Shown one piece after another: positions 21,672 to 42,373 of a stretch of DNA of 54,228 nucleotides. Origin of the DNA: Lentisphaeria bacterium. GTDB taxonomy: Bacteria > Verrucomicrobiota > Lentisphaeria > Victivallales > Victivallaceae. The stretch is taken from the NCBI GenBank assembly GCA_017628235.1, contig JAGBZM010000003.1, positions 1 to 54,228 of the forward strand, given 5' to 3'. Within the stretch, counting starts at the first letter, position 1, and each line of letters opens with the position of its first letter. A model generated the notes under the pieces. It ran no database searches, was not told the origin of the DNA, and was given only the letters and a program-made list of their open reading frames with translations. Made by a program: the position numbers and the translations under genes.

Positions 21672-21684
21672 AAGGAACCGGAAA

Positions 21685-22353
<669 letters not shown>

Positions 22354-22381
22354 TATTGGATAAGGGGAGCAGTTGAAAATT

Positions 22382-23800: not shown

Positions 23801-23804
23801 AAAG

Positions 23805-25376: not shown

Positions 25377-25442
25377 GATGCTGCAATCTTATTTGCCGGG
25401 AAAATTTTACAAAAATTGAAACAATAGAAAGGAAAAAAGAAA

Positions 25443-26120: not shown

Positions 26121-28556
26121 TCACCGTTTGACCGAGTGACGCATGGGAAGTGCGCGCGCCGGATCTTCGGGCCATTCGTGCTTGGGATAGCGGCCGCGCA
26201 TTTCGCTTCTTACCAGCTTCCACGATCCCTGCCAGAATCCCGGCAGGTCACAGCTTATCTGCACCGGCCGCCGGGCGGGAGAGAGCAATTCTATGCGCAG
26301 CGGTATGTGGTTTTTGCCGACAACCGGATGGGTGGTTACTCCGTAAAGTTGTTGGATCTGAATGGATAAAGTCGGTTGCTCTCCGGAGTAGTCGATGGGA
26401 AAAGTCATTCCGGTCGGGGCAGTGAAAAATTCCGGGCAGAAGCGTTCAAGCATCTGCAGTACATTAAAATCCAGATTATTGTGCAGCAGGTGATGCCAGT
26501 TGGTTTTTTTCAAATCAGCGAGCGAATTGATATTGTCCGGAAAATATGGAGCCAGCGAGAGCAGAAAGTCGGCGTTTATTTCCGGTACTCCGGTCAATCC
26601 GCTGTTTCTGGCGAAGTTTAATCTGACCGCCAGCGCATGCGCCCGTTTGTCTTCCGGCGGCGGCAGTTCAATTCTCCGGCGGAATGCTTCTTTGAGCAGG
26701 GCCGGAATGATCATTGCGCGTGAAGTGGCACACGGGCGGCTGTGCAAAGTAAGTTCACCGAGCTTTCGTTCATTGAATGAGAGCAGTTTTTCCGTATTCT
26801 GATCAAAGATGGTCGTACATTTTTCGGCAATGCGTCCGGCAAAATATTTTTCGATACTCTCTTTTTTTACCGGTACTGCCAGCCGGACGGCAGCATTGGC
26901 CGACGCAGTACCGTCAAGTCTGGCAATGGCGATGAACTCCTCCTGGCGCAGGAAATCATCTTCCTGAACGGCAGCGGCACTGCCGTTGGCCAACTGGTAG
27001 ATGACGGTGTTTTCTGTCCGGCGGCGGGCGATCCATTCCGGAAAAGCGATGGCGACCGGCAAACCGCAATCGGCATTTTCCGGTTCGACTTCCGGTGGAA
27101 AGAGCTTCAGCAGTCGCTGATACACGCTCTTTTGAATGTGAAAACTGCTGTTATTGGCGAGCATCCGGCGGAATCTTTCCTGCAGATCCGCAGTGTTGTA
27201 AGCGGCAAAATCATCTTTCTCCTCCAGTATTGCTGCGAATCCGGCGGCTATCCGGCGCAATTCCGGCGGTGAAAAGATCATCATCGCTGCGAGCCGGGGT
27301 GAAAGCGGCAGTGCGGCAGCCTTTTTTCCGGCGGAAGACGGACGGTTGTCCGGGGTGAAAAGAGCCAGTTCCCGCAAAAGTTTTTCTCCGGCGGCAACCG
27401 CCGGAAGCGGCGGGGCATCCATAAATTGCAAATCATCGATCCGGCTTCCCCAGCATCCGATGGCAAGACACAAACCGGAGAGTTCCGTCCGCAGTATCTC
27501 CGGCGGTATGGAACTGTTCATCCGGTCAAAGGTGAGGCGGTCGAAACAGCGGATCGCCACTCCCGGCGCAGTACGTCCGGCCCGTCCGGCCCGCTGGATG
27601 GCTGAAGCCCGGGTGATCCTCCGGTTTTCCAGAAAGTTCATCTGCGCCCCCGGCTGCCATTCCGCACGTTTCTCCCAACCGCAGTCGATCACGCAATCCA
27701 CATGGTCAATGGTCAGACTGCTTTCCGCGACGTTGGTGGCCAGAATTATTTTGCGGATACCCGGCGGCACCGGTGATAAAGCTGCCCGCTGCCGGTCCAG
27801 CGGGAGCGAACCATGCAGCTGACAGATGATAAAACCTTGATCTTGGAGGTGCTGCAGCATTTCGGAACAACGGGATATTTCCATCGCCCCCGGCAGGAAT
27901 ACGAGAATATGTCCCGGTGTGACATGCAGATTTTCCAATACGGCTCTGGCGGTCATCCGGGGAATGTCCCGGGGATGGGCGATATTTTCCCGGTAACGGA
28001 TGTCCACCGGGAAGCCCCGTCCGGGAACGGTTATTACCGGAGATGAGAGAAATTGTCCGGTTCTTTCATGTTCCATTGTCGCAGACATCACCGTTAAAAG
28101 CAGATCTTCCCGCAAAGAAGAACGCATATCCAGTACCAATGCCAGAGCCAGATCCGCATCGGCTGAGCGTTCATGGAATTCATCAAAGATCAGTGCGGAA
28201 ACTTTTTCCAGAGCCGGATCTTCCTGCAGCATCTGCAGTAAAATCCCCGGAGTGACCGCAAGAATACCGTCATCATCACATCTGCAGGATTCTCCGCGCA
28301 CGACAAACCCGGTGTCCCGGCCTGTTTGCAGACCGTGCATACCGGCAATGCCGTGTGCAGCGGCTCTGGCGGCGATCCGGCGCGGTTCGACCAGAACAGT
28401 CAGACCGCCGGAAGCAAGAGAACGGACCAGCACCGGAACCAGCATCGTTTTTCCGGCTCCCGGTTCAGCGGCGATGACGGCACACTTTTTTTCCTGCAGC
28501 GCGGCAGAGATCCGGTCGAGGTGATGAAACAGTGGAAGTTCAGGAAAGTTATTCAT
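26121..28556 (-). CDS. hrpB: ATP-dependent RNA helicase HrpB (DEAH-box)
   Basis: 811 aa with GAGKT, DEFHERS, the HA2/OB region and the HrpB C-terminal domain. Confidence 0.92.
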   Translation of the reverse strand: MNNFPELPLFHHLDRISAALQEKKCAVIAAEPGAGKTMLVPVLVRSLASGGLTVLVEPRRIAARAAAHGIAGMHGLQTGRDTGFVVRGESCRCDDDGILAVTPGILLQMLQEDPALEKVSALIFDEFHERSADADLALALVLDMRSSLREDLLLTVMSATMEHERTGQFLSSPVITVPGRGFPVDIRYRENIAHPRDIPRMTARAVLENLHVTPGHILVFLPGAMEISRCSEMLQHLQDQGFIICQLHGSLPLDRQRAALSPVPPGIRKIILATNVAESSLTIDHVDCVIDCGWEKRAEWQPGAQMNFLENRRITRASAIQRAGRAGRTAPGVAIRCFDRLTFDRMNSSIPPEILRTELSGLCLAIGCWGSRIDDLQFMDAPPLPAVAAGEKLLRELALFTPDNRPSSAGKKAAALPLSPRLAAMMIFSPPELRRIAAGFAAILEEKDDFAAYNTADLQERFRRMLANNSSFHIQKSVYQRLLKLFPPEVEPENADCGLPVAIAFPEWIARRRTENTVIYQLANGSAAAVQEDDFLRQEEFIAIARLDGTASANAAVRLAVPVKKESIEKYFAGRIAEKCTTIFDQNTEKLLSFNERKLGELTLHSRPCATSRAMIIPALLKEAFRRRIELPPPEDKRAHALAVRLNFARNSGLTGVPEINADFLLSLAPYFPDNINSLADLKKTNWHHLLHNNLDFNVLQMLERFCPEFFTAPTGMTFPIDYSGEQPTLSIQIQQLYGVTTHPVVGKNHIPLRIELLSPARRPVQISCDLPGFWQGSWKLVRSEMRGRYPKHEWPEDPARALPMRHSVKR

Positions 28557-29548
28557 TTTACTTTTTTCCCGGCGGCAAGCGGGTGGGCCCCGGCATAAAC
28601 TTTTTTCAGTCTTTCAGCACTGACATGGGTGTAGATCTGAGTGGTGGAGAGGTTCTCATGTCCGAGCATTTCCTGCACACTGCGCAGATCCGCCCCGGCA
28701 TCGAGCAGATGAGTGGCAAATGAGTGACGCAATTTATGCGGAGTGAAATCCGGCGGCAATCCGGCGGCCAGCAGATAATTTTTCAAGTTCCGCTGGAATG
28801 AACGCGCGGTCAGGCGCGAACCGCTTTGATTGAGAAACAGCGGAGAATTGCTCTCCCGTCCGCCGCCGGCGGCATTCCGGTAACGCAGATATTCGCGCAG
28901 AGCTTTTCTGGCCGGAGTGCCGAGCATGGCCAGACGTTCTTTTTTGCCTTTGCCGCGCACTTTGATGATGCCGCTGGAGATGTCGGCATCGGCATAATTG
29001 AGATTGAGGACTTCGCTGATACGCAGACCGCCGGAGTAGATGGCTTCGATGATTGCTTTGTCACGGGATGAAGAAAAGAGCAGACCGCCTGCTGAACGGA
29101 CACTGCCGGCAGCTTCAGCATCTTTCCACCAGGAGTCAACCGCATTGAGCAGCAATTCGATCTGGTTGATGCTCATCACTTTGGGCAGCGGTTTGTCGGC
29201 TTTGATTTTCGGCAGATCGCAAAAAGGGTTGCTTCTGACCGTGTTTGAACGCATCATGAAGCGGAAAAAAGAGCGCATGGCAGATAATTTGCGCTGGATC
29301 GAACGTTTGGCATTGCCGGCATCATGCAGGGCGATGACAAAAGAACGGGCCTGATCGCGGTCGACACTCTCCCATTGGTCAAAAGATAGATCCGAATTGC
29401 GGACAAGGACGGTAAATTCACTGATCCCGGCCAGGTATGCTGCAATGGTATGCGGCGAAGAATTTTTCTCCAACTGCAGATAACGGATGAATGCTTCGGC
29501 ATATTTTCCGGTTTTGACAGATTTTTTTTCGTTTTTCATTTGCACCAC
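28553..29548 (-). CDS. xerC: Tyrosine site-specific recombinase, XerC/XerD type
   Basis: 331 aa with RISE...HKLRHSFATHLL...LGHENLSTTQIYTHV catalytic motifs. There is a 4-nt ATGA overlap with the hrpB start. XerC and XerD cannot be told apart by eye. Confidence 0.85.
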   Translation of the reverse strand: MVQMKNEKKSVKTGKYAEAFIRYLQLEKNSSPHTIAAYLAGISEFTVLVRNSDLSFDQWESVDRDQARSFVIALHDAGNAKRSIQRKLSAMRSFFRFMMRSNTVRSNPFCDLPKIKADKPLPKVMSINQIELLLNAVDSWWKDAEAAGSVRSAGGLLFSSSRDKAIIEAIYSGGLRISEVLNLNYADADISSGIIKVRGKGKKERLAMLGTPARKALREYLRYRNAAGGGRESNSPLFLNQSGSRLTARSFQRNLKNYLLAAGLPPDFTPHKLRHSFATHLLDAGADLRSVQEMLGHENLSTTQIYTHVSAERLKKVYAGAHPLAAGKKVK

Positions 29549-29614
29549 GCGTATTAGTCAAGTATATTAAAATACTGTATATTTGTAAAAATGCAACAAA
29601 AAAGGAGAAAATTT

Positions 29615-30505
29615 ATGATGAATAAGGTGTTTTCGGCTGTTTTGGCAGCGGTGGTAAGTGTCAGTCTGGCAGCGGCAGAGGAGAAGCCGGCGGTCAAACC
29701 GGTCGTTCCCGGGAAAGTCAATGCTGATCTGCTCAATTTGCGGCTGGGGCCGGGATTGCAGCATCCGGTGATCGGCAAGGTCGCGGATAAAACTCAACTG
29801 CAGATCCGCCGGATCATCGGCAACTGGCTGGAAGTTGAAGCTCCGGAAACTCTGACCATTTATGTTTCTGAAGCCCGGATCAACCGGCAGGGCAAACTTA
29901 CCGGAGAGCTGAATATGCGTTCTGCGATGGATGCCAAGGCTCCCTGCTTCGGAACTCTCCCGGCCGGAACCGCAGTGGAAAAGATCGGCAGCAGCAAAAA
30001 CGGCTGGGTGCGGATCAAAGTTCCGGCAGCAGCGGACATCAAAGTTTATGCCGCTTCATTTCTGGTTAACTACGATCCGGCCAAGTTCGATGAAAAGGGC
30101 AATATTGCCGGAACAGTGCCGGCCGAACCGGAAAAAACACCGGCGGAAACCCCGGCCATTCCGGTGAAAGAGGAAAAAAACATCCCGGTGGAAACCCCGG
30201 TTCCGGCTGTCCCGGCGATCGAAGAGGTCAAACCGGAAGCCGAAGCCGCCAAAGCTCCGGAAAATGAGAGTGTCGAGCTGCAGGGAGTTCTGGTGAAGTG
30301 GAAATACAGCAACTCTTCCAAAACAGATTATACTTTGCTCACCGCACCGGAGGGGTTGAATCAGGCATTTGTCAACAGTGACGATCCGGCACTTCTCAAA
30401 GCTCTGGAAAACAAAAAAGTTAAAATTTCCGGCAAACCGGACGGCCGGTTCGGAGAAAATGGCGCAATCATCGTAAAAGTTGATTCGATCGTGGAAATAC
30501 AGTGA
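29615..30505 (+). CDS. Secreted protein with two bacterial SH3 domains and a Pro/Glu/Ala-rich linker
   Basis: ATG 29615 follows AGGAGA. Signal peptide MMNKVFSAVLAAVVSVSLAAA. The SH3b-like repeats are LNLRLGPG...GNWLEV and LNMRSAMD...NGWVRI. Confidence 0.75.
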   Translation: MMNKVFSAVLAAVVSVSLAAAEEKPAVKPVVPGKVNADLLNLRLGPGLQHPVIGKVADKTQLQIRRIIGNWLEVEAPETLTIYVSEARINRQGKLTGELNMRSAMDAKAPCFGTLPAGTAVEKIGSSKNGWVRIKVPAAADIKVYAASFLVNYDPAKFDEKGNIAGTVPAEPEKTPAETPAIPVKEEKNIPVETPVPAVPAIEEVKPEAEAAKAPENESVELQGVLVKWKYSNSSKTDYTLLTAPEGLNQAFVNSDDPALLKALENKKVKISGKPDGRFGENGAIIVKVDSIVEIQ

Positions 30506-30596
30506 AATTGTGCTTCTGCGGAATGATAATTGCATAATTTTTGCCGTCAGGGGTTGAAAAAATACCTTTGACGGTGTAATAGTATATAATCGGATA

Positions 30597-32561
30597 GTGT
30601 TATTAACCCAACAGAAAGGTGGAAAATTGGATAAAACAGAAGAATACAAACGTACGGATGACCGGGCGCGATTGCTGACCAAACTGTCAGTGATCGGGGG
30701 AATCGGGTCATTGATCTTGCTGATTGCGGTGCTGATTCTGGCGGCGAAGCGCGGCGGAGATGTCTTGTCTCTGGCGGCAGTGCCGTTTGCATTGGCACTT
30801 TTGTTTTCGGCGGTATCATTCATCTACGGTATCCTTTACGGTGCGGTGCAGCGGGAGGATGAGGAAAAGCGTCTGCTGGCCAAACGGATGGAGAGCCGGG
30901 CTCTGAATGTGGAGGAGGATGTCCGCTTTACCGCCGGGAGAAGTTTTACCAATTACACCCGTTTTGCTCCCTTTGTGATCGCCGCAGCGGCAATGGTGGT
31001 GATCGGTTTGATGTTGTGGAATAACGTGGAAACCTGGAGCTTGCGGAAAGATGCCGGAGTGGTGATGACCGGTTCGCCGGTGCATACTGCACTGATCGCG
31101 GCGGTGCTGATGATGGTCAGCGTGCTGTCCGGAGCATTTATGGTCGGTCAGTCCCGGATGCCGGGATTCCGCTGGCTGCGTCCGGTGGGCGCATGGCTGA
31201 TGATGGGATTTCTCACGCTTTGCGCCGCAGCGGTTTCCGCACTTTTTTACAGCAACAACATTGTGGAGGTCGATCCGGTTGTTTCCAAAGTGTTTTTCTG
31301 GATTTTCGTGGTGCTTGGCGGGGAATTTGTCGTCAATGCCGTGATTGAATTTTACCGTCCGCGCACGATCGGTGAGAGCCGTCCGGTCTTCGAGAGTCAG
31401 CTTTTGGCACTCTTTACCGAACCCGGCGGTGTATTGCGCAATATTGCTTCAGCCCTGGACTATCAATTCGGTTTCAAAGTTTCCGGTACCTGGATCTACG
31501 GATTTATTGAAAGATCATTTTTCCCGGTGCTGATCCTGTGGGGTGTGCTGTTCTGGGGATTCACGGCGGTGCATGAGGTCGGCCCCAATAATGTCGGTAT
31601 CCGCGAACAATTCGGCAAAGCCCTTACCGGCGAGGTACTTACTCCCGGTATTTATTGGACTTTACCGTATCCTTTCGGTACGATCCGGCAATTCAGCTGT
31701 ACCGAAGTCAAACGCCTGGTGATCGGTGAAAGCTCCGAAAGTGCCAAAGAGCGTGCCGCTTCGCCGGTGGTGCTGTGGACCAATGAACACGGCGTGGCCA
31801 AAGACCCGTTTGTGGTAGCGGTGAAAGAACCGGAAGTCAGAAGCGCGGATAAAAGTGCATTGAGTCTGGAAAGTTCAAGTATCTCATTTGTCAATATGGC
31901 CATCCCGATCGAGTACCGTATCCGGGAAGACGGAGTGGTCAAGTATGCTTACGGCAATGCCGATCCGGATGCGGTGATGAAAAAACTCGGTGAACAGGCG
32001 GTGGTCGAATTTCTGGCCGGTACGACGATGGAGGATTTCATGGCTTCCGGTCGCGGCCGCGCTGAAGCGGTACTGCAGCAGAATCTGCAGAAACTGGCCG
32101 ATCAGAATGAGTTGGGCGTGGAGATCATCCGCGTGGCGATCATGGATGCTCACCCGCCGGTGGAGAATGTCGCTCCGGCGTACCAGAATGTGATTGCTTC
32201 CATCGAGGAGCGTCAGACTGAAACTCTCAAGGCCGAAGCATACCGCAATACCGTGCTGCCGGCAGCGGAAGCTGCCGCATTCGGGATCGAAAAATCTGCT
32301 TTCAGCCGGGCCGAAAGTGCCAAGATCATTGCTGAAGCTGAAAGTGAACGCTTCAGCGAACAGCTTAAAGCATTCCGCAGTATGCCGCAGATGTTTATGC
32401 TCAACGCCCGAATGGAGGCTCTGGAAACTGACGGTGCCTCCATTCAGAAGTATGTGGTTCCGGCGGATATCAAAGACATGGTCTACCAGATGAATTTCGA
32501 GAAAAATGAACGGCTGGATCTGGTGAATCTGGATGTGTCCGAATTGAGTGATAAAAATTAA
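30597..32561 (+). CDS. Polytopic membrane protein with a C-terminal SPFH/band-7 domain
   Basis: About 330 aa with multiple TM helices, then the SPFH core (VGIREQFGK...PGIYWTLPYPFG) and a coiled-coil tail. The start is uncertain: GTG 30597 is followed by two TTA codons, and TTG 30627 is the alternative. Confidence 0.75.
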   Translation: MLLTQQKGGKLDKTEEYKRTDDRARLLTKLSVIGGIGSLILLIAVLILAAKRGGDVLSLAAVPFALALLFSAVSFIYGILYGAVQREDEEKRLLAKRMESRALNVEEDVRFTAGRSFTNYTRFAPFVIAAAAMVVIGLMLWNNVETWSLRKDAGVVMTGSPVHTALIAAVLMMVSVLSGAFMVGQSRMPGFRWLRPVGAWLMMGFLTLCAAAVSALFYSNNIVEVDPVVSKVFFWIFVVLGGEFVVNAVIEFYRPRTIGESRPVFESQLLALFTEPGGVLRNIASALDYQFGFKVSGTWIYGFIERSFFPVLILWGVLFWGFTAVHEVGPNNVGIREQFGKALTGEVLTPGIYWTLPYPFGTIRQFSCTEVKRLVIGESSESAKERAASPVVLWTNEHGVAKDPFVVAVKEPEVRSADKSALSLESSSISFVNMAIPIEYRIREDGVVKYAYGNADPDAVMKKLGEQAVVEFLAGTTMEDFMASGRGRAEAVLQQNLQKLADQNELGVEIIRVAIMDAHPPVENVAPAYQNVIASIEERQTETLKAEAYRNTVLPAAEAAAFGIEKSAFSRAESAKIIAEAESERFSEQLKAFRSMPQMFMLNARMEALETDGASIQKYVVPADIKDMVYQMNFEKNERLDLVNLDVSELSDKN

Positions 32562-32600
32562 CAATAAATAATATATAATATTTGGAGGCAGAATAGAATT

Positions 32601-33530
32601 ATGGCAAAGGGAAATTTTTTCAAACATTGGCCGACGATGTTTCTCGGTCTGATCGTGGCACTGATTTTGCTTACGGCGGTATTTTCGTTCCAGCTCAATC
32701 AGACTGAAGTGGCGGTACTCACGACTTTCGGCAGACCTTCGGTGGTCGAGGAAGCCGGACTGCACTTCCGCTGGCCGTTCCCGTTTCAGAAAGTTTACCG
32801 TTTCGACAAACGTATCCGTTGTTACGAGGGCAGCAGCGGCAAACTGGAAGAGACCGTGACCGAGGACGGACACAATATCATCGTCGGTATCTATGTCAAC
32901 TACCGGATCAGCGCAGTGGAAACGTTTTTCAGCAAACTCAAAGATATTTCCAATGCGGAGGATGTGCTGAACACTTTGATGCGGAGCGCGAAAAACACCG
33001 CTTTCGGCAAACGGAAATTCGATCAGGTGGTGAATGCTGACGGCAACATGCTCAAACTCAATGAGATCATGGCTGAGATCCAGAGTACTCTCACCCGTGA
33101 CACTTCTGCATTCGGCATCGAGATCGTCGATGTCGGCATCAACAGTCTGGGCGTACCGAAAACTGTTACCGAAAAGGTCTTTGAAAGAATGATCGCGGAA
33201 CGTAAACGCTTCGCGGATGAAAACATCTCCAAAGGTAAGAGCGAAGCGGAAAAGATCCGGGTCGAAGCCAATTTGGAACGCGATCAGAAGATCGCCCGCG
33301 CCGAGGCCGATGCTCTGAAACTGCGCGCGCAGGGTGATGCGGAAGCGGCTAAATTTTACAAGGAATTTGCCAAAGATCCGCAGCTTGCCGAGTTTCTCCG
33401 TAAGATCGAAGCTCTCCGGGTGATGATGAGAGGACGTACCACGATGGTGGTCAATACCGATATGCCGCCTTTTGATCTGTTGAAGCCCGGAACGGTTATT
33501 CCCGGGGTCAAAGCTTCTGAAACCAAGTAA
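32601..33530 (+). CDS. hflC: SPFH/band-7 protein, HflC-like
   Basis: N-terminal TM helix, then VLTTFGRP...GLHFRWPFPFQKV, GIEIVDVGINSLGVP and a MIAERKR coiled coil. Confidence 0.8.
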   Translation: MAKGNFFKHWPTMFLGLIVALILLTAVFSFQLNQTEVAVLTTFGRPSVVEEAGLHFRWPFPFQKVYRFDKRIRCYEGSSGKLEETVTEDGHNIIVGIYVNYRISAVETFFSKLKDISNAEDVLNTLMRSAKNTAFGKRKFDQVVNADGNMLKLNEIMAEIQSTLTRDTSAFGIEIVDVGINSLGVPKTVTEKVFERMIAERKRFADENISKGKSEAEKIRVEANLERDQKIARAEADALKLRAQGDAEAAKFYKEFAKDPQLAEFLRKIEALRVMMRGRTTMVVNTDMPPFDLLKPGTVIPGVKASETK

Positions 33531-33542
33531 CAAGGAGCGATC

Positions 33543-34682
33543 ATGGAGGACAACAAAAGCGTAATAACCAATGAATTCGACCGCAGCGGCCGTTATGATG
33601 CCGGGTTGAAGTCTTTGGCCAAAAGTCTGCGCGTGGCGTTTCTGCTGCTGTTGATCGGCATTATCGCCACCTTGATTTACTTTGTCAGCGGCGCGGGATA
33701 CTTTTCGGTTGAACCGCAGCAGGCGGTGATCGTGAGCCGTTTCGGCCGGATCGCCGGGACTTATACTTCCGGCGGACACTGGTTCCTGCCTTTCCCGGTC
33801 AATCAATTTATCCGGGTGCAGACCAGTCAGCAGCTGCTGGAAGTGGATTTCTCTGCCGCCGCAACTCCCAATGGCGGCGGTGATTCTCTGGAACCGGGCC
33901 GTGATACCTATGTGATGACCGGCGATGCGAATATTGTTCACAGTTCGTGGACCATCGCGTACCGGGTGGATAATCCGGAAAAGTTCTACTGCAATCTGCT
34001 TACTCCCCTGTTTCCGGTGGAAAACGGCAAAGTTACTCCCGATGATGAATTCAAAGATGCCGACGGTATGACCGGCACTCGCGGTCCGGTGACACTGTTG
34101 CGCAATCTTTTCCGGCGGGCAGTAATTACTGTTACCGCGCAATCGGTGGTCAACGACATCCTTTACGCCGGACAGAGCAAATACAGCGATGATGTGCGGC
34201 GGGAATTTGCCCGGCTGGTGACAGCCCATGATTGCGGTATCGTGATCGAAAATGTCGGATTGAACCGCATTTATCCGCCGGTGAAGACCAAAGAGGCGTT
34301 TGAAGAGGTCACTTCGGCAGCCAATGCCAGTTCGGCCTTGCGTAATGAAGCACTGGCTTACAAGGTCACTCAGGAAAATGAAGCGGTTTCCCGCAGTGCA
34401 GCGATCATTGCCGCTGCTGAAGCGTATAAAAACCGGATCACCGCCCAGCTGGAGGCCCAGAGCGACCATTTCAATAAGATTTACGAACAGCACCGGAATA
34501 ATCCAGGCACTCTGACGATGGCTCTGTACACAGAAATGCTCAAAGAGGTCGCCGCCGATGTCTATAAAGACGGTGACAAATTCGTGCTTGGTCCTCAGGG
34601 AAGCGGCAAATCTCTCTGGCTCAAACTTAACCGTGAACCGAAAACATCCACCGCTGCCGACGGTGCGGGGGAGGGTAAATAA
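33543..34682 (+). CDS. hflK: SPFH/band-7 protein, HflK-like
   Basis: Cytoplasmic tail plus a TM helix, then VIVSRFGRI...GGHWFLPFPV and MTGDANIVHSSWTIAYRVDNPEKFY. Confidence 0.75.
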   Translation: MEDNKSVITNEFDRSGRYDAGLKSLAKSLRVAFLLLLIGIIATLIYFVSGAGYFSVEPQQAVIVSRFGRIAGTYTSGGHWFLPFPVNQFIRVQTSQQLLEVDFSAAATPNGGGDSLEPGRDTYVMTGDANIVHSSWTIAYRVDNPEKFYCNLLTPLFPVENGKVTPDDEFKDADGMTGTRGPVTLLRNLFRRAVITVTAQSVVNDILYAGQSKYSDDVRREFARLVTAHDCGIVIENVGLNRIYPPVKTKEAFEEVTSAANASSALRNEALAYKVTQENEAVSRSAAIIAAAEAYKNRITAQLEAQSDHFNKIYEQHRNNPGTLTMALYTEMLKEVAADVYKDGDKFVLGPQGSGKSLWLKLNREPKTSTAADGAGEGK

Positions 34683-34684
34683 TT

Positions 34685-36718
34685 ATGAGCGAACATATTC
34701 ACAATCATCAGCATGGCTGTGCCTGCGGTCACGATCACCACGATCATGAGCATGATCACGGCCATTGCGCCTGCGGTCACGACCACCACCATGAAGACAG
34801 CACCTGCATTTGCGGCCATGACCACAAAGCCGAAGGCGGGGTCGGCCATGACCGGAGCATGGGCCGGGTGTTCTTTGCGCTGGTCGGCGGTATTCTGACT
34901 GCCAACAGTTTTATTCTGGAAGCACTTCTGCCGGAACAGCAGTTCGCTTCTTACATGTCAGCTCTTTTCGGAGCATTCATTCTGGCTCTGCCGATCATCA
35001 TCACTGCGGTGAAAGATTTGATCAAGGGTAAAGTTTACATGAATGAGCTGGTTGCATTGGCGATCCTTGCAGCTCTGGTCAAAGCTGACTTTCAGACGGC
35101 CGGGATTATCGCGTTCTTTCTGCTGGTGACCATCATCATCGAGACGCGTACCGCCAGCGGGGCCCAGCGGTCAATCGAGGAACTTATCAAGCTCACTCCC
35201 AATACCGCGAGTCTGATCGGCGCGGACGGCAGTGAAAAAGAGGTCGCCGCGCAGGATCTGCATGTCGGTGACCGCATCCGTATCCGTCCCGGAGAGAACT
35301 TCCCGGTGGATGGTCAAATCATTTCCGGTGAAAGTACCGTCAATCAGGCTTCCATTACCGGTGAATCAGTGCCGGTGGAAAAGGTCGCCGGAGATGATGT
35401 TTTCGCCGGTACCCAGAACCTGACCGGCGCAGTGGATGTCACAGTGACCAAAGTCGGCGGGGAAACCACGTTGGGCAAGGTCAAAGAGATGATCATGCAG
35501 GCGGAAGCCAGCCGTACCCCGGTGGTGCGGATCATCGACCGTTATGCCGGATATTATACTCCGACGGTGCTGATGATCGCCTGGATCACCTGGTGGTTCA
35601 GCCGGGATATGGATTCCGTGATCGCTTTTCTGGTCATTGCCTGTCCCTGTGCGGTGGTGCTGGCCACTCCGACGGCGGTGGTCGCGGCGGTGGCGGCGGC
35701 AGCGCGGTTGGGTATTTTTATCAAGAATATCAGCCATTTGGAACTTGCCAGCCGGATTTCAGCGTTTGTATTTGATAAAACCGGTACTTTGACCGACGGT
35801 CTGCTGTCAGTGGTCAAACTGCAGGGAGTTGACGGGGTCACTCCGGCGGAATTGCTCCGCAGTGCCGCTTCCGTAGAGCGTTTCAGTAACCACCCGACAG
35901 CTTTGGCGATCATCAAACTGGCGCAGGAAGCAGAACTGGAACTGGATGGTGTCACCGGATTTGCCGAAGAACACGGTAAAGGTGTTTCCGGAACGGTTGC
36001 CGGTTCGCTTTACCGGGTCGGCCGGGCCAACTGGATGCGGGAAAACGGCCTGCTGCTGCCGGAAAGCGATCCGGATGAAGCAGCCGGTATGAGTGTGGTT
36101 TATGTCAGTAAAGATGACAGGGTTCTCGGTTGGATCGGGTTCCGGGACAAGATCCGCAAAGAATCGCAGGTACTGCTTTCTGATTTGCGGCGGCTGGGTG
36201 TACGTTACTGTGCGATGGTCACCGGTGACCGGCAATCGGTTGCCGAAGAGGTCGCCGGTCAGCTCAATATCGATGAATTCAAAAGCGGTTGTTTGCCGGA
36301 AACCAAAGTCGAATTTGTGGAAAATGTCAAACGTGATCATACCGTGGCAGTGGTCGGTGACGGCGTGAATGACGCTCCGGCACTGGCCGCCGGAGATCTG
36401 GGTATCGCCATGGGAGCCATCGGCAGTGACATTGCGATCAACAGTGCATCAGTGGCGTTGATGACCAATGATTTGCGCCGGATCGCGATGCTGATTTTCC
36501 TAGCGAAAAAATCTCAGGTGGTCATCAATCAGAACTTGATTTTCGGTATGCTCTTTGTTTTCGGCGGTATGATCCTGTCGATCGTGGGCCTGATGACTCC
36601 GATCTGGGCGGCGGTGATCCATGCCGGCAGTACATTGGTGATCGTATTCAACAGTGCGCGTTTGGTGCGTACCGGAGAAGAACTGACTCTGGCCGATAAG
36701 GCAGAATCTGATAAATAA
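34685..36718 (+). CDS. Heavy-metal-translocating P1B-type ATPase with a His/Cys-rich N-terminus
   Basis: CPC in ACPCAVVLATP, DKTGTLT, GDGVNDAPAL and HAGSTLVIVFNSARL. The N-terminal 58 aa carry three CxCGHDH motifs. The ATG lies 2 nt after the upstream stop. Confidence 0.92.
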   Translation: MSEHIHNHQHGCACGHDHHDHEHDHGHCACGHDHHHEDSTCICGHDHKAEGGVGHDRSMGRVFFALVGGILTANSFILEALLPEQQFASYMSALFGAFILALPIIITAVKDLIKGKVYMNELVALAILAALVKADFQTAGIIAFFLLVTIIIETRTASGAQRSIEELIKLTPNTASLIGADGSEKEVAAQDLHVGDRIRIRPGENFPVDGQIISGESTVNQASITGESVPVEKVAGDDVFAGTQNLTGAVDVTVTKVGGETTLGKVKEMIMQAEASRTPVVRIIDRYAGYYTPTVLMIAWITWWFSRDMDSVIAFLVIACPCAVVLATPTAVVAAVAAAARLGIFIKNISHLELASRISAFVFDKTGTLTDGLLSVVKLQGVDGVTPAELLRSAASVERFSNHPTALAIIKLAQEAELELDGVTGFAEEHGKGVSGTVAGSLYRVGRANWMRENGLLLPESDPDEAAGMSVVYVSKDDRVLGWIGFRDKIRKESQVLLSDLRRLGVRYCAMVTGDRQSVAEEVAGQLNIDEFKSGCLPETKVEFVENVKRDHTVAVVGDGVNDAPALAAGDLGIAMGAIGSDIAINSASVALMTNDLRRIAMLIFLAKKSQVVINQNLIFGMLFVFGGMILSIVGLMTPIWAAVIHAGSTLVIVFNSARLVRTGEELTLADKAESDK

Positions 36719-36739
36719 TTGTCGTAAAAGGATTTGCAG

Positions 36740-37915
36740 ATGGAAAACAACTATGAACCGGTGGTGCAGGCAGTCGGCTTGACCAAAATGTTCCGGGATT
36801 TCTGGCACCGTCCGAAAGCCCGGGCGGTGAACGGTATTGATTTTGAGATCAAGCCAGGAGAAGTGGTCGGTTTGCTCGGTCCCAACGGTTCGGGTAAATC
36901 CACGACGGTGAAAATGCTTCTGGGGCTGCTTTATCCCACCGGCGGTAAGGTGACGGTTTTCGGGAAATCTCCCCGGGAAGTGGAGACTAAACGGGAGATC
37001 GGTTATCTGCCGGAGGAGTCATATCTTTATAAATTTCTGACTGCCGAAGAGACACTGAACTTTTTCGGTTCGCTTTTCAATATTTCGGCAGAGGACCGGA
37101 AGCGGCGCATCGATCAGCTGCTGGATATGGTCGGTCTGGCCCATGCGCGTTACCGCCGGGTCGGAGAATTTTCCAAAGGTATGGCACGGCGTATCGGTCT
37201 GGCCCAGGCGATGATCAATGACCCGGCGTTTCTGATCCTTGATGAACCGACCAGCGGTCTTGACCCGTTAGGATGCCGGGAGGTGAAAGATTTGATCCTC
37301 GCGCTGAAAAAACGGGGCAAAACGGTGCTTATCACCAGCCATCTGCTCAGCGATGTGGAAGATATCTGCGACCGGGTGATCATTCTGTACGGCGGCAAGA
37401 TCCGGGCTGAAGGAGCATTGGATGAATTGCTTACCGTCAGTGACAAAACCCGCATCCTTACTCCCCAGCTGCCGAAAGAGGCGATGGAAAAACTGCTCGG
37501 TCTGCTCCGGGAAAATCTGCATGGCGAACAATTCAATGTTGACCATCCCCGGCGGACACTGGAAGAATTTTTCCTCGATGTTATTTCACAAGCCAGACGG
37601 GAAAGTGTGGAAACAGCCGGTGTTTCCGGTTCCGGCGGCATAGCTGAATATCTGGTCGGTGATAAAGAAGATAAAAATGCGGTACTCAATTCGCTTCTGC
37701 AGGAAACTCCGGTTGAAGAGAAAACTGCGGCAGTTGCGGCAGCTGTTCCGGCAAAGAGCAGTGCGGATGAGAAGATCGCTTCGGTACTTGAAACGGAAAA
37801 AACGGCAGCGGTATCAGAGGCTCCGGCGACTGCCCGGTCTGGCGATACGGCAGAGAATATCCGCCGGGCCAATGATAAGTTGGATTCGCTGCTCGGCGGT
37901 AAATCAGGTGAATGA
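36740..37915 (+). CDS. ABC transporter ATP-binding protein (ABC-2 type) with a disordered C-terminal extension
   Basis: Walker A GPNGSGKST, signature FSKGMARR and Walker B FLILDEPTSGLD. ATG 36740 lies 7 nt after AAAAGGA. Confidence 0.9.
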   Translation: MENNYEPVVQAVGLTKMFRDFWHRPKARAVNGIDFEIKPGEVVGLLGPNGSGKSTTVKMLLGLLYPTGGKVTVFGKSPREVETKREIGYLPEESYLYKFLTAEETLNFFGSLFNISAEDRKRRIDQLLDMVGLAHARYRRVGEFSKGMARRIGLAQAMINDPAFLILDEPTSGLDPLGCREVKDLILALKKRGKTVLITSHLLSDVEDICDRVIILYGGKIRAEGALDELLTVSDKTRILTPQLPKEAMEKLLGLLRENLHGEQFNVDHPRRTLEEFFLDVISQARRESVETAGVSGSGGIAEYLVGDKEDKNAVLNSLLQETPVEEKTAAVAAAVPAKSSADEKIASVLETEKTAAVSEAPATARSGDTAENIRRANDKLDSLLGGKSGE

Positions 37916-39342
37916 TGAAAGCATTTAGAGCCATTGTAGCTTTGACCTTCCGCAATGCGGTGCGGTCGCATATTTTTCAATTGCTGCTGCTTTTGCTGCT
38001 GTTGTGTGTCACCGTCATTCCGGTGTCGGTGTCCGTCGGCAAACCGGAAGATCTGATCCGGGTTTCGCTGCTGTACAGTTTGTGGGCGGTCAGCATCATT
38101 CTTACTTTGTCATCACTGTGGCTGGGCTGTTACATCATGTCTCACGACATTGATACCTATCAGATCCACATGGTGGTTTCCAAACCGGTTTCCCGGATCA
38201 CGGTCTGGCTGGGCAAATGGACCGGCATCAATATGATAAATATTGTTCTGCTGCTGTTGTCGGCTCTGGCGGTGTATGCGATGGTGATGTTCCGCTACCA
38301 GAGTGCCGGGGAAGAGGGGGCATTGGCGGATCGTCAGCTGGCGCGGGAGAATGCGAAGTCGGAAAAAGAGAGGATCCGTTCTCAGGTGCTGGTTGGCCGC
38401 CGCAGTTATCTGCCCAAAGCGCGTGATCCGGAAAGGGCGGCAGAATTTGCGGTTCGCCGCCGGGTCATGGAGCTGCAGAAAGAGGGCAAACAGCTGCCGG
38501 ATTCGGAATTGATAAAGATGCGTGATGAGATCAAATCGCAGATCGACAAACTTCCGATCGAAGTGCAAAGCGGTGAAGCTTACCGCTGGATCTTTGAGAA
38601 TGTGCCGCAGGAGTTGAATGATACTTCGCTGATCCTGCGTTACCGTCCGTATCTGGGCAAAGTTTCCAGTGAAGACCAGCGCGAGAGCAGTATGCAGTGG
38701 GCGGTATTTATGCCGCACACGGGACAGGACGGCAGTTACGCGCTTTATCCTTTTGCTCTGACCAACGGTCCGGAATCCCATTTTACCGGGGTTTTCCATG
38801 AGAAAGAATTGCCCAAAGGAGTGATAACCAAAGACGGTACGGTGCTGGTGGAAACGGCGAACTTTGACCGGATGGGCGGTAAACACTACTATCAGACAGC
38901 CGACGGACCGAAATTGTTGATCCCGGTATGCAGTTTTGAGATGAATTATCTGCGGGCGATACTGGTAATGACGATCCAATTGCTGTTGCTTTCCGGTCTG
39001 GCGTGTGCATTCGGCGGATTTCTGACGATGCCGACGGCGGTATTCATGGTGGTCAGTTATCTGCTCTTCGGTGCGTTGTCGATGGTATTGACTGATTCAT
39101 CGTTTTTCCTGGAGTCGGCGTGGGATCATGCCGGGCAATTTCTGGCCAAAGCACTGCTGCTGATAGTTATTCCTCTGCAGCATTTTGATGTAACGGATCT
39201 GCTGTCCGGCGGTGATCTGATCGAGTTTTCCTATATTGGGGAATTATTTTTCAAATATTTTCTGCTGCGCGGTGTGCCGTTGTTCCTTTTCGGCATCTGG
39301 CTTTACCGGCGGCGTGAAATGGGAGCTGCGGTGAGAAAATGA
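37912..39342 (+). CDS. ABC-2-family permease-like membrane protein with a soluble insertion of about 200 aa
   Basis: ATGA overlap with the ATPase gene. The N-terminal TM bundle has VVSKPVSRITVWLGKWTG (ABC-2/NosY-like motif). A charged coiled-coil-rich insert follows, then C-terminal TM helices. Confidence 0.7.
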   Translation: MMKAFRAIVALTFRNAVRSHIFQLLLLLLLLCVTVIPVSVSVGKPEDLIRVSLLYSLWAVSIILTLSSLWLGCYIMSHDIDTYQIHMVVSKPVSRITVWLGKWTGINMINIVLLLLSALAVYAMVMFRYQSAGEEGALADRQLARENAKSEKERIRSQVLVGRRSYLPKARDPERAAEFAVRRRVMELQKEGKQLPDSELIKMRDEIKSQIDKLPIEVQSGEAYRWIFENVPQELNDTSLILRYRPYLGKVSSEDQRESSMQWAVFMPHTGQDGSYALYPFALTNGPESHFTGVFHEKELPKGVITKDGTVLVETANFDRMGGKHYYQTADGPKLLIPVCSFEMNYLRAILVMTIQLLLLSGLACAFGGFLTMPTAVFMVVSYLLFGALSMVLTDSSFFLESAWDHAGQFLAKALLLIVIPLQHFDVTDLLSGGDLIEFSYIGELFFKYFLLRGVPLFLFGIWLYRRREMGAAVRK

Positions 39343-40961
39343 ACAGATTTCGCAATATGACTCTGATTTTGGCACTGCTGCTGATCACGGCCGGGGTGCT
39401 TTTCGGCATCCGGCGCATTGAATACCGGTTGGACAGGGAAATCAATGAGCAGAAGCTCCGTTTTACCGGGGCGGTCAATGATGCACCGCCGGCGGTGGTA
39501 TTCACGACGGTGGCTCTGGGAAGTTTCCGGGGGCTGTTGGCAGATATTCTCTGGCTGCGGTCGGAGATGCTCAAAGGTAAGAAAAATTATTTTGAAATGG
39601 TGCAGCTGGCGCGTTGGATCACGGACTTGCAGCCCAATTATTCCGGCGGTACGGCTTATCTGGCGTGGAATTTGGCGTACAATATTTCAGTGACCAGTTC
39701 GGATTACGAGGATCGCTGGTACTGGGTCAACGAGGGTATTCAGCTGATCCGGGACAAAGCGATGCTTTACAATCCGGATGATCCGCTGCTTTTCCGGGAG
39801 TTGTCATGGATATATCTGCATAAGCTGGGAAATCTGATGGATGATGCCAACTTGTATTACAAGAATCAGATGGCGATCCAGATGACCAATATTCTCGGCA
39901 GCACGACTCCGGATTGGGAATTGCTGGCTTCTGCTCCGGAGAGCAAGGAGGCGTTTCTCAAAAAGTATCCGGAAAATTCTCCATTCTGGGAGGCGGTGAA
40001 AAAAGCCGGATACAACAATTACGATGAGTTGTTCATAGCCTTTCGTACTCCGGTCAAAGCGGCATTGCCGGAACAGTTGCGCCTCTATCTGCCGCAGGCT
40101 GAATTTGCGGCACTGGATGCATTTTTCCGGGCGGAACTGCTCCGTAATAAATTGAAGCTTGATCCGAAAAAGATGGTCGAAATCGACCGGAAATACGGGA
40201 AAATGGATTGGCGTGTACCGGAATCGCAGGCGATCTACTGGGCGACCCTGGGGGTGGAAAAGAGTTCAGCCGGCGGCCGTACTCCGGATATCAACTGTGT
40301 GCGTATCGTATCGAACAGTCTGCAGGCGGCATTCCGCAGCGGCCGGATATTGATGCTGGGGGAGGATGGCCGGAGCATTCAGTCGGTTCCCAATCTGAAT
40401 CTGGCAGATTCGGCGTATGCGGCGTTTGAAGTCGGTGAAGCCGAATATGGCGGCAGCGGCGCGGGCAACAGTTTCCGCAGTGCCAAAATAAATTATCTCA
40501 AAGACGCCATTCCGTTGATCTACATCAACGGCAATATAACCAAGGCGCAGGAGTTCTTTGACCGGCTGGTGAAGATCGACGGCCCGCAGAAGCGCAACAA
40601 TCTGGATGAGTTTGTCATGGTCGAATTTGCCGAAGATGTACGCGATGCGGATGTGGAAAAGGCCAGTTCAGTTATCAGCGGTCTTATCCAGCGGGCGATC
40701 ATCAATTTGCTCTACGGCAACCGCGATGCAGCTGTGGCCAATGAACGGCTGGCACGTTACATTCATGGCAGTTATGTGCAGAGAAACAAGGATGTCAAGC
40801 GCAATGTCCTGCCGCCTTACAACCGGATCAAGCAGGGGATTATCGACAACAGCCGCCGCAATCTGCCTCCGGCACTGGTCAGCATTCTGGAAGCGGAAAT
40901 CGGTGCGGAAAAAGCTGATGCTGCTGAAAAATTTATTCCGAAGGAGACAACGGCGATGTGA
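39339..40961 (+). CDS. Membrane-anchored all-helical protein of unknown function
   Basis: ATGA overlap with the upstream gene. N-terminal TM MTLILALLLITAGVLFGI. 540 aa, helical-repeat-like, no family recognised. Confidence 0.6.
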   Translation: MNRFRNMTLILALLLITAGVLFGIRRIEYRLDREINEQKLRFTGAVNDAPPAVVFTTVALGSFRGLLADILWLRSEMLKGKKNYFEMVQLARWITDLQPNYSGGTAYLAWNLAYNISVTSSDYEDRWYWVNEGIQLIRDKAMLYNPDDPLLFRELSWIYLHKLGNLMDDANLYYKNQMAIQMTNILGSTTPDWELLASAPESKEAFLKKYPENSPFWEAVKKAGYNNYDELFIAFRTPVKAALPEQLRLYLPQAEFAALDAFFRAELLRNKLKLDPKKMVEIDRKYGKMDWRVPESQAIYWATLGVEKSSAGGRTPDINCVRIVSNSLQAAFRSGRILMLGEDGRSIQSVPNLNLADSAYAAFEVGEAEYGGSGAGNSFRSAKINYLKDAIPLIYINGNITKAQEFFDRLVKIDGPQKRNNLDEFVMVEFAEDVRDADVEKASSVISGLIQRAIINLLYGNRDAAVANERLARYIHGSYVQRNKDVKRNVLPPYNRIKQGIIDNSRRNLPPALVSILEAEIGAEKADAAEKFIPKETTAM

Positions 40962-41089
40962 TTTGATAAAATCGGTTCGGGTTGTCTTAAGCGGTGCCGG
41001 AGAGAAGCTGGAAGCTCCGGCCGGCAGAAAATTTTTCAGCATAAAGGTGTACTCCGGGAAAGGCCGGAGTACGGATAGTCATATCGGGG

Positions 41090-42373
41090 ATGAAAGTGGA
41101 GGAGTTTATATTCGGTTCACAGCCAGGCAGTACGGGGAACTGGATAATATTTGCAGTCAGTCTTGCCTGTGCATTGTTTGTGTCACATATCTGTTCATTG
41201 ATGGAGGCGGCGATATTGAGCGTTACGCCGAGTCAATTGGCGGAATTGCGTCAGAAGCATCCGGCGATCGGTGATGTGGCGCAGAATTTAAAACGCGAAA
41301 TAGATAAGCCGCTGGCGGTGATTCTGATTTTGAATACAGCGGCACATACGATCGGTGCTGCTGTCGCCGGTGCGAGTTTTGCGGAACTCGGCTACGGCAG
41401 ATATATGGGGATATTTTCACTGATTTTTACTCTGGTGATGGTGCAGTATACTGAGCTGCTGCCCAAAACACTGGGGGTCAGATTTAATACCGTGATATTG
41501 AAAGTGGCAGTCCGACCGCTGTATATTGCGACACTGGTACTGGCACCGCTGATCAAATTGACCAAGTTCATCAACCGTCCTTTTGAGGGCAAAACTCCGG
41601 CGCGTCCGACTCCTGCGGAAGAGATTTCCGCACTGGCGGCGATGGCGAGGAGCAATCAGACGATTTCCAGCCGTCAGGAGAGGATCATCCGGATGGTGCC
41701 GTCACTTTCGGAAAAGTGCGCCGAGGATGTGATGATCGCACTGGAAGATGTCTCATTTCTGGATGCCGACATGTCCCTGGATGATGCGATCAACGCTACC
41801 GGAGATGATTTTCACACCCGTTATCCGTTGTGCATCGAGGGTGATCGCAGCCGGGTGCCGGGGTATGTGAATATCAAGGAGATCATTCTGGCGGTGCAGC
41901 ATGGCAAGGGCGATATGAAAGTATCGGATATCATGCGGCCGATAGCGTTTGCTGATTCCGATGACAGTGCATCCAAACTGCTGGAGATGTTTGCCGCCCA
42001 GCACTGCCATATGACGATCATCCGCGATGCCGGTTCCGGAAAAACATGCGGTCTGGTAACGTTGGAAGATATTGTGGAAGAGTTGATCGGGGATCTGGAT
42101 GATGAATTTGATCCGCTGCCCCGGACATTTTACGCGCCGGGAGATAATCTCTGGGTGGTCGGCGGCGGGGTGCCGCTGGCTCAGCTGGCGCGGGATACGC
42201 AGCTGGATCTGCCGCGCCGGGCGGAATCGGTATCATCGTGGTTCGGCCGGGAACTTGGTTCACAGGTGAAAGTCGGTGACCGGCTGATATGGAAAAATGC
42301 GGAACTTTTTGTCCGCAAGATCCGCCGCCGTCAGGCGTGGGAATTTCATCTTAAACGCAGAAAACTTATGTAA
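41090..42373 (+). CDS. CNNM/CorC-HlyC family protein (DUF21 TM domain, CBS pair and CorC_HlyC domain)
   Basis: 427 aa with the DUF21 motif MEAAILSV, a CBS pair region and a C-terminal transporter-associated domain. Confidence 0.85.
   Translation: MKVEEFIFGSQPGSTGNWIIFAVSLACALFVSHICSLMEAAILSVTPSQLAELRQKHPAIGDVAQNLKREIDKPLAVILILNTAAHTIGAAVAGASFAELGYGRYMGIFSLIFTLVMVQYTELLPKTLGVRFNTVILKVAVRPLYIATLVLAPLIKLTKFINRPFEGKTPARPTPAEEISALAAMARSNQTISSRQERIIRMVPSLSEKCAEDVMIALEDVSFLDADMSLDDAINATGDDFHTRYPLCIEGDRSRVPGYVNIKEIILAVQHGKGDMKVSDIMRPIAFADSDDSASKLLEMFAAQHCHMTIIRDAGSGKTCGLVTLEDIVEELIGDLDDEFDPLPRTFYAPGDNLWVVGGGVPLAQLARDTQLDLPRRAESVSSWFGRELGSQVKVGDRLIWKNAELFVRKIRRRQAWEFHLKRRKLM

Follow-up and report, generated by a model that had tools for sequence, protein, structure and literature searches.

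What kind of membrane system is encoded where three paralogous SPFH (Band_7) proteins share a row of genes with a metal-transporting ATPase and an ABC-2-type transporter? This question is raised by seven consecutive genes at positions 30597-40961 of a stretch of 54,228 nucleotides (nt), here called the window, from a Lentisphaeria bacterium close to Victivallaceae (contig JAGBZM010000003.1 of assembly GCA_017628235.1). In a preliminary description of this DNA it had been proposed that the SPFH proteins form a dedicated assembly that organises or gates a metal-efflux module. The analysis reported here retains the dedicated SPFH-transporter operon but no longer frames the module as a whole as metal efflux, nor does it place the ATPase at the centre. 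The stable core consists of the SPFH trio, the ABC-2 transporter and the product of the seventh gene, and the metal pump is a frequent accessory. We read the block as a dedicated SPFH-transporter module of the inner membrane of Planctomycetes-Verrucomicrobia-Chlamydiae (PVC) bacteria, a model whose chances of being right or wrong seem to us evenly balanced. The genes, g1 to g7, are the following.

30597-32561, plus strand: g1 (S1), HflK-like SPFH protein with a novel N-terminal domain of about seven transmembrane (TM) segments; likely true start TTG 30627
32601-33530, plus strand: g2 (S2), HflC-like SPFH protein with a single N-terminal TM helix
33543-34682, plus strand: g3 (S3), HflK-like SPFH protein with a single N-terminal TM helix
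34685-36718, plus strand: g4, P1B-type ATPase of what appears to be a distinct subgroup
36734-37915, plus strand: g5, ABC ATPase with a DrrA/GldA-like nucleotide-binding domain and a low-complexity C-terminal tail
37912-39342, plus strand: g6, putative ABC-2-type permease with a predicted periplasmic domain of about 210 amino acids (aa) between TM3 and TM4
39339-40961, plus strand: g7, membrane-anchored all-α (TPR-like) solenoid of 540 aa, from an unnamed family

The list of open reading frames (ORFs) reproduced these seven plus-strand frames exactly as they had been described, as well as their spacing: the junctions from g1 to g5 measure 39, 12, 2 and 15 nt (the last one 21 nt with the ATG at 36740), two 4-nt overlaps follow, and 128 nt separate g7 from the next gene, g8. 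The longest frame of g1 opens with GTG 30597. Translation probably starts 30 nt further downstream at TTG 30627, because this codon is preceded by the Shine-Dalgarno sequence AAAGGTGG and because a conserved promoter-like element ends at about 30590.

The conservation of the block was studied in 80 Lentisphaerota genome loci that were fetched around homologs of g7, 55 of them complete and 25 cut by contig ends. The block genes present were colinear and on one strand in 80 of 80 loci, and all seven genes occurred in identical order and strand, with tight junctions, in 55 of the 55 complete ones, among them the complete genome of strain zth2 (CP071032; L064), which has the full block. Within Lentisphaerota this synteny persists where identity falls to 44% for g7, 40% for g1 and 37% for g3. 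The spacing is kept as well, as the gap between g3 and g4 is -4 to +6 nt in most loci (typically about 2 nt) and the 4-nt ATGA overlaps at g5-g6 and g6-g7 recur in most of them. The upstream flanks are made up of many unrelated gene clusters, and downstream the sole recurrent neighbour is a CNNM gene (g8 in the window), found after g7 in 55 of the 80 loci. Because order, strand and junctions are kept in 55 of 55 loci while the flanks differ, the adjacency of the block genes is not due to chance.

One promoter-like element is conserved among the relatives, and it lies 5' of g1.

30550-30590, plus strand: promoter-like element, GGGGTTGAAAAAAT ... GGTGTAATAGTATATAAT, 5' of g1, with a presumed promoter function

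Its conservation emerged when the sequences upstream of g1 were aligned for 13 related Lentisphaerota loci, and a consensus scan placed a TTGAAA/AATAGT promoter site at 30554-30583. In the consensus scan of the block no terminator-like sites were found at the gene junctions, and the internal matches to the terminator consensus (21 against 14.3 ± 3.8 in shuffled sequence) are near background. The seven genes form one operon-like unit, with no sign that internal promoters or terminators split it.

The block is not confined to the phylum of the source genome. Distant members of the g7 family, at 26-38% identity, bear the annotation 'hypothetical protein' and come from Phycisphaerae and Planctomycetia, and in four planctomycete contexts (L081/L083, L086, L087 and L112) the g7 homolog is the last gene of a block. 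In the order of the genes, this block encodes Band_7 proteins of 680-757 aa, 309-356 aa and 455-477 aa, an ABC_tran protein, an ABC2_membrane_2 permease and the g7 homolog, so that the planctomycete S1-S3 genes are also Band_7 carriers. Reciprocal BLAST gave one-to-one orthology between the window genes and those of the planctomycete block at 23-55% identity: 24-29% for g1 (the polytopic N-terminus included), 31-33% for g2, 27-29% for g3, 47-55% for g5, 23-25% for g6 and 31-33% for g7. Judged from these sequences, the block is older than the phylum Lentisphaerota. It thus recurs outside the source genome, as had been asked of it, and its reach is established for Lentisphaerota, Planctomycetota and a further lineage, L111, which is about 30% identical to both phyla and has the Lentisphaerota gene order with the ATPase embedded.

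Every planctomycete block contains in addition a divergent gene of 400-428 aa that encodes a second, shorter ABC-2-like permease paralog, whereas Lentisphaerota have a single permease. The positions of this gene are as follows.

L081, 412-1698, minus strand: second permease paralog, divergent from S1
L086, 353-1555, minus strand: second permease paralog, divergent from S1
L087, 994-2193, minus strand: second permease paralog, divergent from S1
L112, 1043-2245, minus strand: second permease paralog, divergent from S1

A further 23 loci were taken from metagenome contigs bearing the second-permease gene, and the same block was present in all of them that had enough flank. The ATPase, when present in planctomycete blocks, follows the second permease: nine of the metagenome loci have a P1B ATPase with 49-52% identity to g4 directly after it, and in L081 and L086 the corresponding place is taken by a P-type ATPase gene of which just the first 84 and 21 residues fall inside the loci. 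Overall, the ATPase gene is found in about 60% of the planctomycete-type loci, where it is divergent and adjoins the block outside the operon. The preliminary description had placed the SPFH proteins and the metal pump together at the core, which does not hold for a pump that in planctomycetes is encoded on the other strand and is absent nearby in the remaining loci. The ATPase is a recurrent accessory that joined the block in two different arrangements, and this double recruitment is good evidence that it is functionally linked to the block. Within the core, g6 and g7 form the tightest pair.

The identification of g1, g2 and g3 as SPFH/Band_7 paralogues stood, since all three score above the PF01145 cutoff of 23.6 bits (g1, 47.6 bits, E = 2.5e-12; g2, 104.2 bits, 1e-29; g3, 68.8 bits, 8e-19). 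At the level of equivalogs, g2 belongs to HflC by the score of 143.6 bits that it reaches on TIGR01932 (cutoff 134.4), and on the enterobacterial model NF008259 it stays well below the cutoff, at 107.6 against 427. On the HflK equivalog TIGR01933 (cutoff 159.4 bits), g3 and g1 score 116.4 and 83.2 bits; both are HflK-like and neither is an equivalog. The best PDB matches are HflK (7vhp_E) for g1, HflC (7vhp_G, E = 2e-27) for g2 and again HflK for g3. The PDB and NCBIfam matches of the three proteins span their SPFH and coiled-coil regions, HflK and HflC are their sole solved relatives, and a protein at least 90% identical to g2 is named 'protease modulator HflC' by NCBI.

The most unusual member of the trio is g1, in which Band_7 (residues 327-548) is preceded by seven hydrophobic segments. 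A crude hydropathy prediction places the N-terminus inside and the SPFH domain in the periplasm; by the same crude prediction all three SPFH domains, together with a β-sandwich of g6, would lie on the periplasmic side. The N-terminal 7-TM domain of g1 has no relative in Pfam or NCBIfam even at E <= 10, and a profile search of PDB gave chance matches alone. The possibility that it is related to permeases was rejected, as hhalign gave a probability of 0.2% in a comparison of the S1 domain with the second-permease family. A predicted cytoplasmic loop of S1, EFYRPR...FTEPGG...DYQFGFKVSGTW (residues about 250-300), is the most conserved stretch of the whole protein and does not vary between Lentisphaerota and Planctomycetota.

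For the arrangement of such proteins the HflK/C-FtsH complex of E. coli (PDB 7vhp, 7wi3) is the obvious model, in which alternating paralogs cage a membrane client and HflK/C encloses FtsH (7vhp). The block shares with it HflK-, HflC- and HflK-like sequences, N-terminal anchors and SPFH and coiled-coil regions that are predicted to be periplasmic. It differs from it in having three paralogs instead of two, one of them with a 7-TM domain, in g1 and g3 that fail the HflK equivalog, in the absence of ftsH nearby and in an operon that joins an ABC-2 transporter, an α-solenoid and a P1B ATPase. In the module that we propose, the two HflK-like proteins and the HflC-like one would co-assemble into a hetero-oligomeric, periplasm-facing ring or cage of the HflK/C type. 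This cage would serve the co-encoded proteins instead of FtsH, confining or stabilising them, and the 7-TM domain of g1 with its invariant cytoplasmic loop is likely to be the docking element or adaptor.

The absence of ftsH, noted before for the window, extends to its relatives: tblastn (E <= 1e-5) detected no FtsH homolog in the window or within 10 kb at any of 112 related loci. In every locus examined the SPFH genes pair with the transporters described here and never with ftsH. A partner of the NfeD type, likewise reported to be missing, was not found among the block genes, which have no NfeD match in Pfam or NCBIfam, and the tight junctions leave no space for an extra ORF within the block. 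As hflK and hflC of E. coli are also unlinked to ftsH, the lack of ftsH near the loci does not decide whether the trio associates with FtsH.

It is conceivable, then, that the block belongs to ordinary HflK/C quality control, with g2 and g3 (and g1 as an extra subunit) acting as modulators of an FtsH that is encoded elsewhere, and with co-expression explained by the surveillance of transporter assembly by FtsH/HflKC. The unlinked genes of E. coli are established knowledge and fit this explanation, as do the HflC score of g2, the name given to its near-identical relative and the fact that HflK and HflC are the only relatives of g1-g3 with a solved structure. A housekeeping modulator would, however, not be expected to stay joined to the ABC-2 and g7 genes by short or overlapping junctions in two phyla, nor do all members of the trio resemble the classical subunits equally: with 83 and 116 bits g1 and g3 remain well below the HflK cutoff of 159, and the novel 7-TM domain of g1 with its invariant loop is missing in HflK. 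Together with the 112 loci that are free of ftsH within 10 kb, this makes quality control an unlikely explanation of the block.

In the proposed dedicated module the constant clients of the cage would be the ABC-2 transporter (g5 and g6) and its α-solenoid partner g7. The nucleotide-binding subunit g5 matches ABC_tran with E = 6e-34, and its best NCBIfam models, drrA and GldA, are both below cutoff. The permease g6 matches nothing in Pfam or NCBIfam, even at E <= 10, and its family profile gave chance matches only against the PDB sequences. Its planctomycete orthologs score 32.6 and 28.2 bits on ABC2_membrane_2 (PF12679; gathering cutoff 27.2), and two Lentisphaeria homologs carry a precomputed match to the same family. 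The putative ABC-2 identity of g6 thus comes from orthology alone. The earlier label of an ABC-2 exporter is in this way upheld for the permease through its orthologs only, and the proposed connection with metal is not, as no Cys or His site is conserved across the phyla. A candidate metal site in g6 was rejected for this reason: Cys73, His86, Met87 and Cys365 are invariant in Lentisphaeria and not in the planctomycete orthologs.

The AlphaFold2 (AF2) model of g6 (pLDDT 83) consists of three TM helices, a long helical stalk, a β-sandwich (residues about 160-341) and three more TM helices, which are accompanied by short external helices. In Foldseek the β-sandwich matched CBM16, lectin and Fbs1-type sugar-binding folds (target TM-score about 0.4), and the whole chain matched LptG only and weakly (0.27-0.34). 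For g7 the AF2 model (pLDDT 78.7) shows an N-terminal TM helix, a second, hydrophobic or amphipathic helix with the highly conserved motif FTTVALG(S/G)FRGL, and then an all-α solenoid. Foldseek returned generic TPR solenoids alone for it, at TM-scores below 0.25. Neither Pfam nor NCBIfam contains a relative of g7, a profile search of PDB gave chance matches, and a Pfam scan of 13 diverse relatives yielded one stray TPR_17 match. The preliminary description of g7 as an unknown 540-aa protein is accurate as to the missing Pfam and PDB relatives and not as to its apparent orphan status. The protein belongs to a large family present in at least two PVC phyla, whose profile collected 2609, 1633 and 898 clusters (at 50% identity) at E <= 1e-3, 1e-10 and 1e-30, and whose members are called 'hypothetical' by NCBI and JGI, as is g7 itself. 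The family has members outside the block, as a planctomycete homolog at L085:10001-11704 stands without SPFH or ABC neighbours. About 2.9 kb upstream of this gene, on the opposite strand, lies a VKOR-DsbA fusion gene, with an NHL-repeat gene in between.

These features allow a second alternative, which partly overlaps our model, namely that the block encodes a machine for periplasmic assembly or extraction and not for efflux. In that case the ABC-2 transporter would act together with its β-sandwich and g7 as mechanotransducer or extractor, a patch of membrane would be defined by the SPFH ring, and metal would be supplied to the periplasm by the P1B ATPase where one is present. NosDFY, which delivers metal to a periplasmic enzyme, and LptB2FG, which extracts lipid by means of a hetero-dimeric permease, could serve as models. 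The β-sandwich of g6 is inserted between TM3 and TM4 as in LptF/G, so that the permease resembles them in its layout of 3 TM helices, periplasmic β-sandwich and 3 TM helices, and LptG is its weak whole-chain match. Planctomycetes, moreover, pair a single nucleotide-binding-domain gene with two permease paralogs, the second one shorter, by which a hetero-dimeric permease becomes conceivable. The combination of an ABC-2 permease with a large auxiliary protein is also found in NosFY-NosD and GldAFG, and NosY and GldF are members of the same Pfam ABC-2 family that is matched by the g6 orthologs. That g6 and g7 have a nearly universal 4-nt overlap and are the only part of the block remaining in L075 would suit such a machine as well. 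Yet no relation of g6 to NosY, NosD or LptF/G was detected at the level of sequences or profiles, the fold matches are weak (TM-score at most 0.34), and g7 is an α-solenoid, which is neither the β-helix of NosD nor similar to GldG. As g6 and g7 are also devoid of conserved metal ligands and no client enzyme is encoded near the block, we consider an extraction machine to be improbable. Finally, that unrelated housekeeping genes became neighbours by accident is a highly improbable explanation, which the synteny data all but refute. It is true that every one of these families is common by itself and that the ATPase and CNNM genes come and go between lineages, but the gene order survives protein identities of 23-33% between phyla amid changing surroundings, the overlapping and 2-nt junctions are conserved, and the ATPase joined the block in two arrangements.

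In the dedicated SPFH-transporter module the P1B ATPase would be a frequent second client. The assignment of g4 to the P1B ATPases was borne out by 530.4 bits on TIGR01525 (cutoff 346.25) and by the core motifs ITGES, IACPCA, FDKTGT and VGDGVNDAP, which are kept in the orthologs, together with an HP motif. It is the most conserved gene of the block in the Lentisphaerota loci (64-96% identity) and about equally distant from CopA, sCoaT and ZntA. All orthologs have (A/S)CPC in TM helix M4, QNLxFG in M5 and, in M6, H-x-x-S-[ST] followed by FNSARLVRxGEE. The His in M6 aligns with the His of HEGST in sCoaT, with Asp714 of ZntA and with the Met of MxxSS in CopA. The protein passes the broad subfamily model TIGR01511 (417 against 397).

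An identity as P1B-2 pump was rejected in a comparison with ZntA (4umv), because the M6 Asp position is a His and the M5 Lys position (K693) is hydrophobic, so that the Lys/Asp pair is missing; the ZntA-specific models are far out of reach (341 against a cutoff of 1240). The P1B-1 or CopA type was rejected on the basis of 3rfu, as both the YN motif in M5 and the MxxSS motif are missing, with His in place of the M6 Met, and the CopA equivalog gave 325 against 1316. The P1B-4 type is characterized by SPC in M4 and HEGxT in M6. With the P1B-4 pump sCoaT (7qbz) g4 shares the M6 His, its HAGST aligning with HEGST, but the Glu is absent and M4 reads CPC, instead of SPC, in all orthologs. The earlier label of a Zn/Cd/Co-type pump was not confirmed: with CPC in M4 and a His in M6 where ZntA has Asp and CopA has Met, the signature of g4 appears to define a P1B subgroup of its own.

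The N-terminus of g4 carries a His-rich tail that resembles those of Zn and Co pumps. In Lentisphaerota the first TM helix is preceded by CxCGHDH repeats, two to four in number, and by a GHDRxMGR motif that does not vary, whereas the planctomycete orthologs have a His-only tail and L076, L080 and L111 have none. Close relatives, as seen in the window (34685-34870) and in the orthologs of L001-L080, differ in having about 1 to 4 CxCGHDH repeats, while GHDR(S/A)MGR is invariant, and two of the loci (L076 and L080) lack the entire tail; the tail looks like a rapidly evolving region for the sensing or buffering of metal. The His/Cys-rich tail and the M6 His suggest that the ATPase exports a divalent transition metal, with Zn, Co, Ni and Cu(II) as likelier cargoes than Cu(I). 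For its part, the ABC-2/g7 unit would perform ATP-driven transport or mechanical work in the periplasm, and its substrate is probably not a metal.

Co-assembly of the trio, its physical coupling to the transporters and their caging, the metal and the nature of the ABC-2 substrate are what we infer from these data, and several observations weigh against the dedicated module. As g2 reaches the HflC equivalog cutoff, g2 and g3 could be ordinary FtsH modulators. The parts of the block are separable, since L075 holds g6 and g7 alone and L085 a solitary g7 homolog, and the ATPase is missing nearby in about 40% of the planctomycete-type loci (L093, L095, L097, L099, L100, L110 and L112). With regard to metal, the permease and g7 families have no conserved metal-ligand residues, Rfam revealed no riboswitch or other regulatory RNA, and hence no metal-responsive riboswitch, in the block or in six related loci, and no regulator gene was found next to the block, whose flanks are unrelated between lineages. 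Lastly, the hydropathy of g7 is ambiguous as to the side of the membrane on which the solenoid resides. A bolder form of the model would be a PVC supercomplex, in which an HflK/C-type cage of three paralogs was re-dedicated from FtsH to the ABC-2 transporter with its lectin-like periplasmic domain and to g7 (and, in many lineages, to the specialised P1B ATPase) and forms a closed periplasmic or membrane micro-compartment that receives and handles the pumped metal. This form is possible, and we think it more doubtful than the module as such.

In agreement with the preliminary description, full-text literature searches found no described system of this composition. HflK/C-FtsH is the closest one in sequence, and PacL1-CtpC is the closest in concept. 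PacL1 of Mycobacterium tuberculosis scaffolds and stabilises the P1B ATPase CtpC in membrane foci termed 'metal efflux platforms' or effluxosomes (PMC9374683, PMC13043812). As in the block, the pump shares its operon with the gene of a membrane scaffold or chaperone thought to cluster and stabilise it, and both systems have His/Asp-rich motifs, DLHDHDH in PacL1 and CxCGHDH in the N-terminus of g4. However, PacL1 is a small DUF1490 protein and not an SPFH protein, its foci are independent of flotillin, no ABC transporter is involved and the systems are not homologous; in the ORF list and by Pfam no PacL (DUF1490) gene was found in the block. A functional link between an SPFH scaffold and a metal-related ABC-type transporter has been described for Staphylococcus aureus, where FloA membrane microdomains are reported to be needed for Isd/FhuC heme import (PMC10147376). 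FloA is a general scaffold encoded elsewhere with a cytoplasmic SPFH domain, whereas the trio of the block is co-encoded with its candidate clients and predicted to face the periplasm. Stomatin and flotillin genes, too, form conserved operons with a partner gene of their own. In a survey of prokaryotic SPFH operons from 2009, NfeD partners were assigned to SPFH1, SPFH2 and SPFH5, and the HflK/C type (SPFH3) was partnered only by each other (PMC2636767). The SPFH proteins of the block are of this HflK/C type, and an NfeD-like gene is lacking.

The theme of an SPFH scaffold with a client thus reads as a known one, and the novelty would be in the clients and in the adaptor domain. If the model is true, the block represents a rare bacterial SPFH scaffold that is hard-wired to clients other than the FtsH protease. 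This touches upon the wider question which roles bacterial SPFH proteins have beyond FtsH modulation and how they choose their clients, most of which have been proposed from co-localisation or pull-downs with general scaffolds. Since here the candidate clients are encoded in the operon across at least two phyla, the hypothesis of a dedicated cage is directly testable, with strain zth2 as a cultured host. Irrespective of function, the block defines a g7 family without Pfam entry, a fusion of a 7-TM domain, with its invariant cytoplasmic loop, to an HflK-like protein, a permease with an LptF/G-like β-sandwich and a candidate CPC/His subgroup of P1B ATPases.

The gene that follows the block in the window is the CNNM gene.

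41090-42373, plus strand: g8, CNNM/CorC-type divalent-cation transporter, a lineage-restricted downstream neighbour

It is a member of the CNNM/CorC family in which the CNNM TM domain (PF01595, 81 bits), a CBS pair (PF00571, 39 bits) and a CorC_HlyC domain (PF03471, 26.5 bits, just below the cutoff of 27) are present. As it is absent from the more distant loci and from every planctomycete-type locus, the CNNM gene is a late, lineage-restricted addition. In 32 Lentisphaerota loci (L029 and L043 among them) the gene directly after it encodes a lipoprotein of about 170-280 aa that has a lipobox Cys, and in a few (L051, L059 and L066) such a gene comes directly after g7. In the window the lipoprotein is absent and rpe follows the CNNM gene instead. 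The spacer between g7 and g8 contains a perfect 8-bp hairpin at 41050-41071, TACTCCGG-GAAAGG-CCGGAGTA, which is not followed by a T-run, and a second GC-rich inverted repeat at about 40998-41024. Placed between the operon and the CNNM gene, these repeats might act in processing or attenuation or be bound by a protein.

The block is immediately preceded by genes for a XerC/D-type tyrosine recombinase (28553-29548, minus strand) and an SH3-domain protein (29591-30505, plus strand). This pair is not part of the module, because it is retained only in the closest relatives. An open frame of 869 codons on the minus strand (31884-34493), antisense to g1-g3, is almost certainly no gene, being a shadow frame that the coding strand leaves free of stops. 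A role in anti-phage defence was considered and rejected, as PADLOC gave generic ABC-ATPase matches for g5 alone and none for the other seven proteins. Elsewhere in the window, a plus-strand cluster at 20619-26114 starts with a weakly matching GntR-like regulator, and the four ORFs after it (222, 475, 523 and 223 aa) have no Pfam match at 1e-4 or 1e-5. At 43509-45587 a single ORF of 692 aa encodes MurB (FAD_binding_4, MurB_C) fused to a D-Ala-D-Ala ligase with a hydrophobic C-terminal tail, and this fusion is also conserved in related Lentisphaerota loci.

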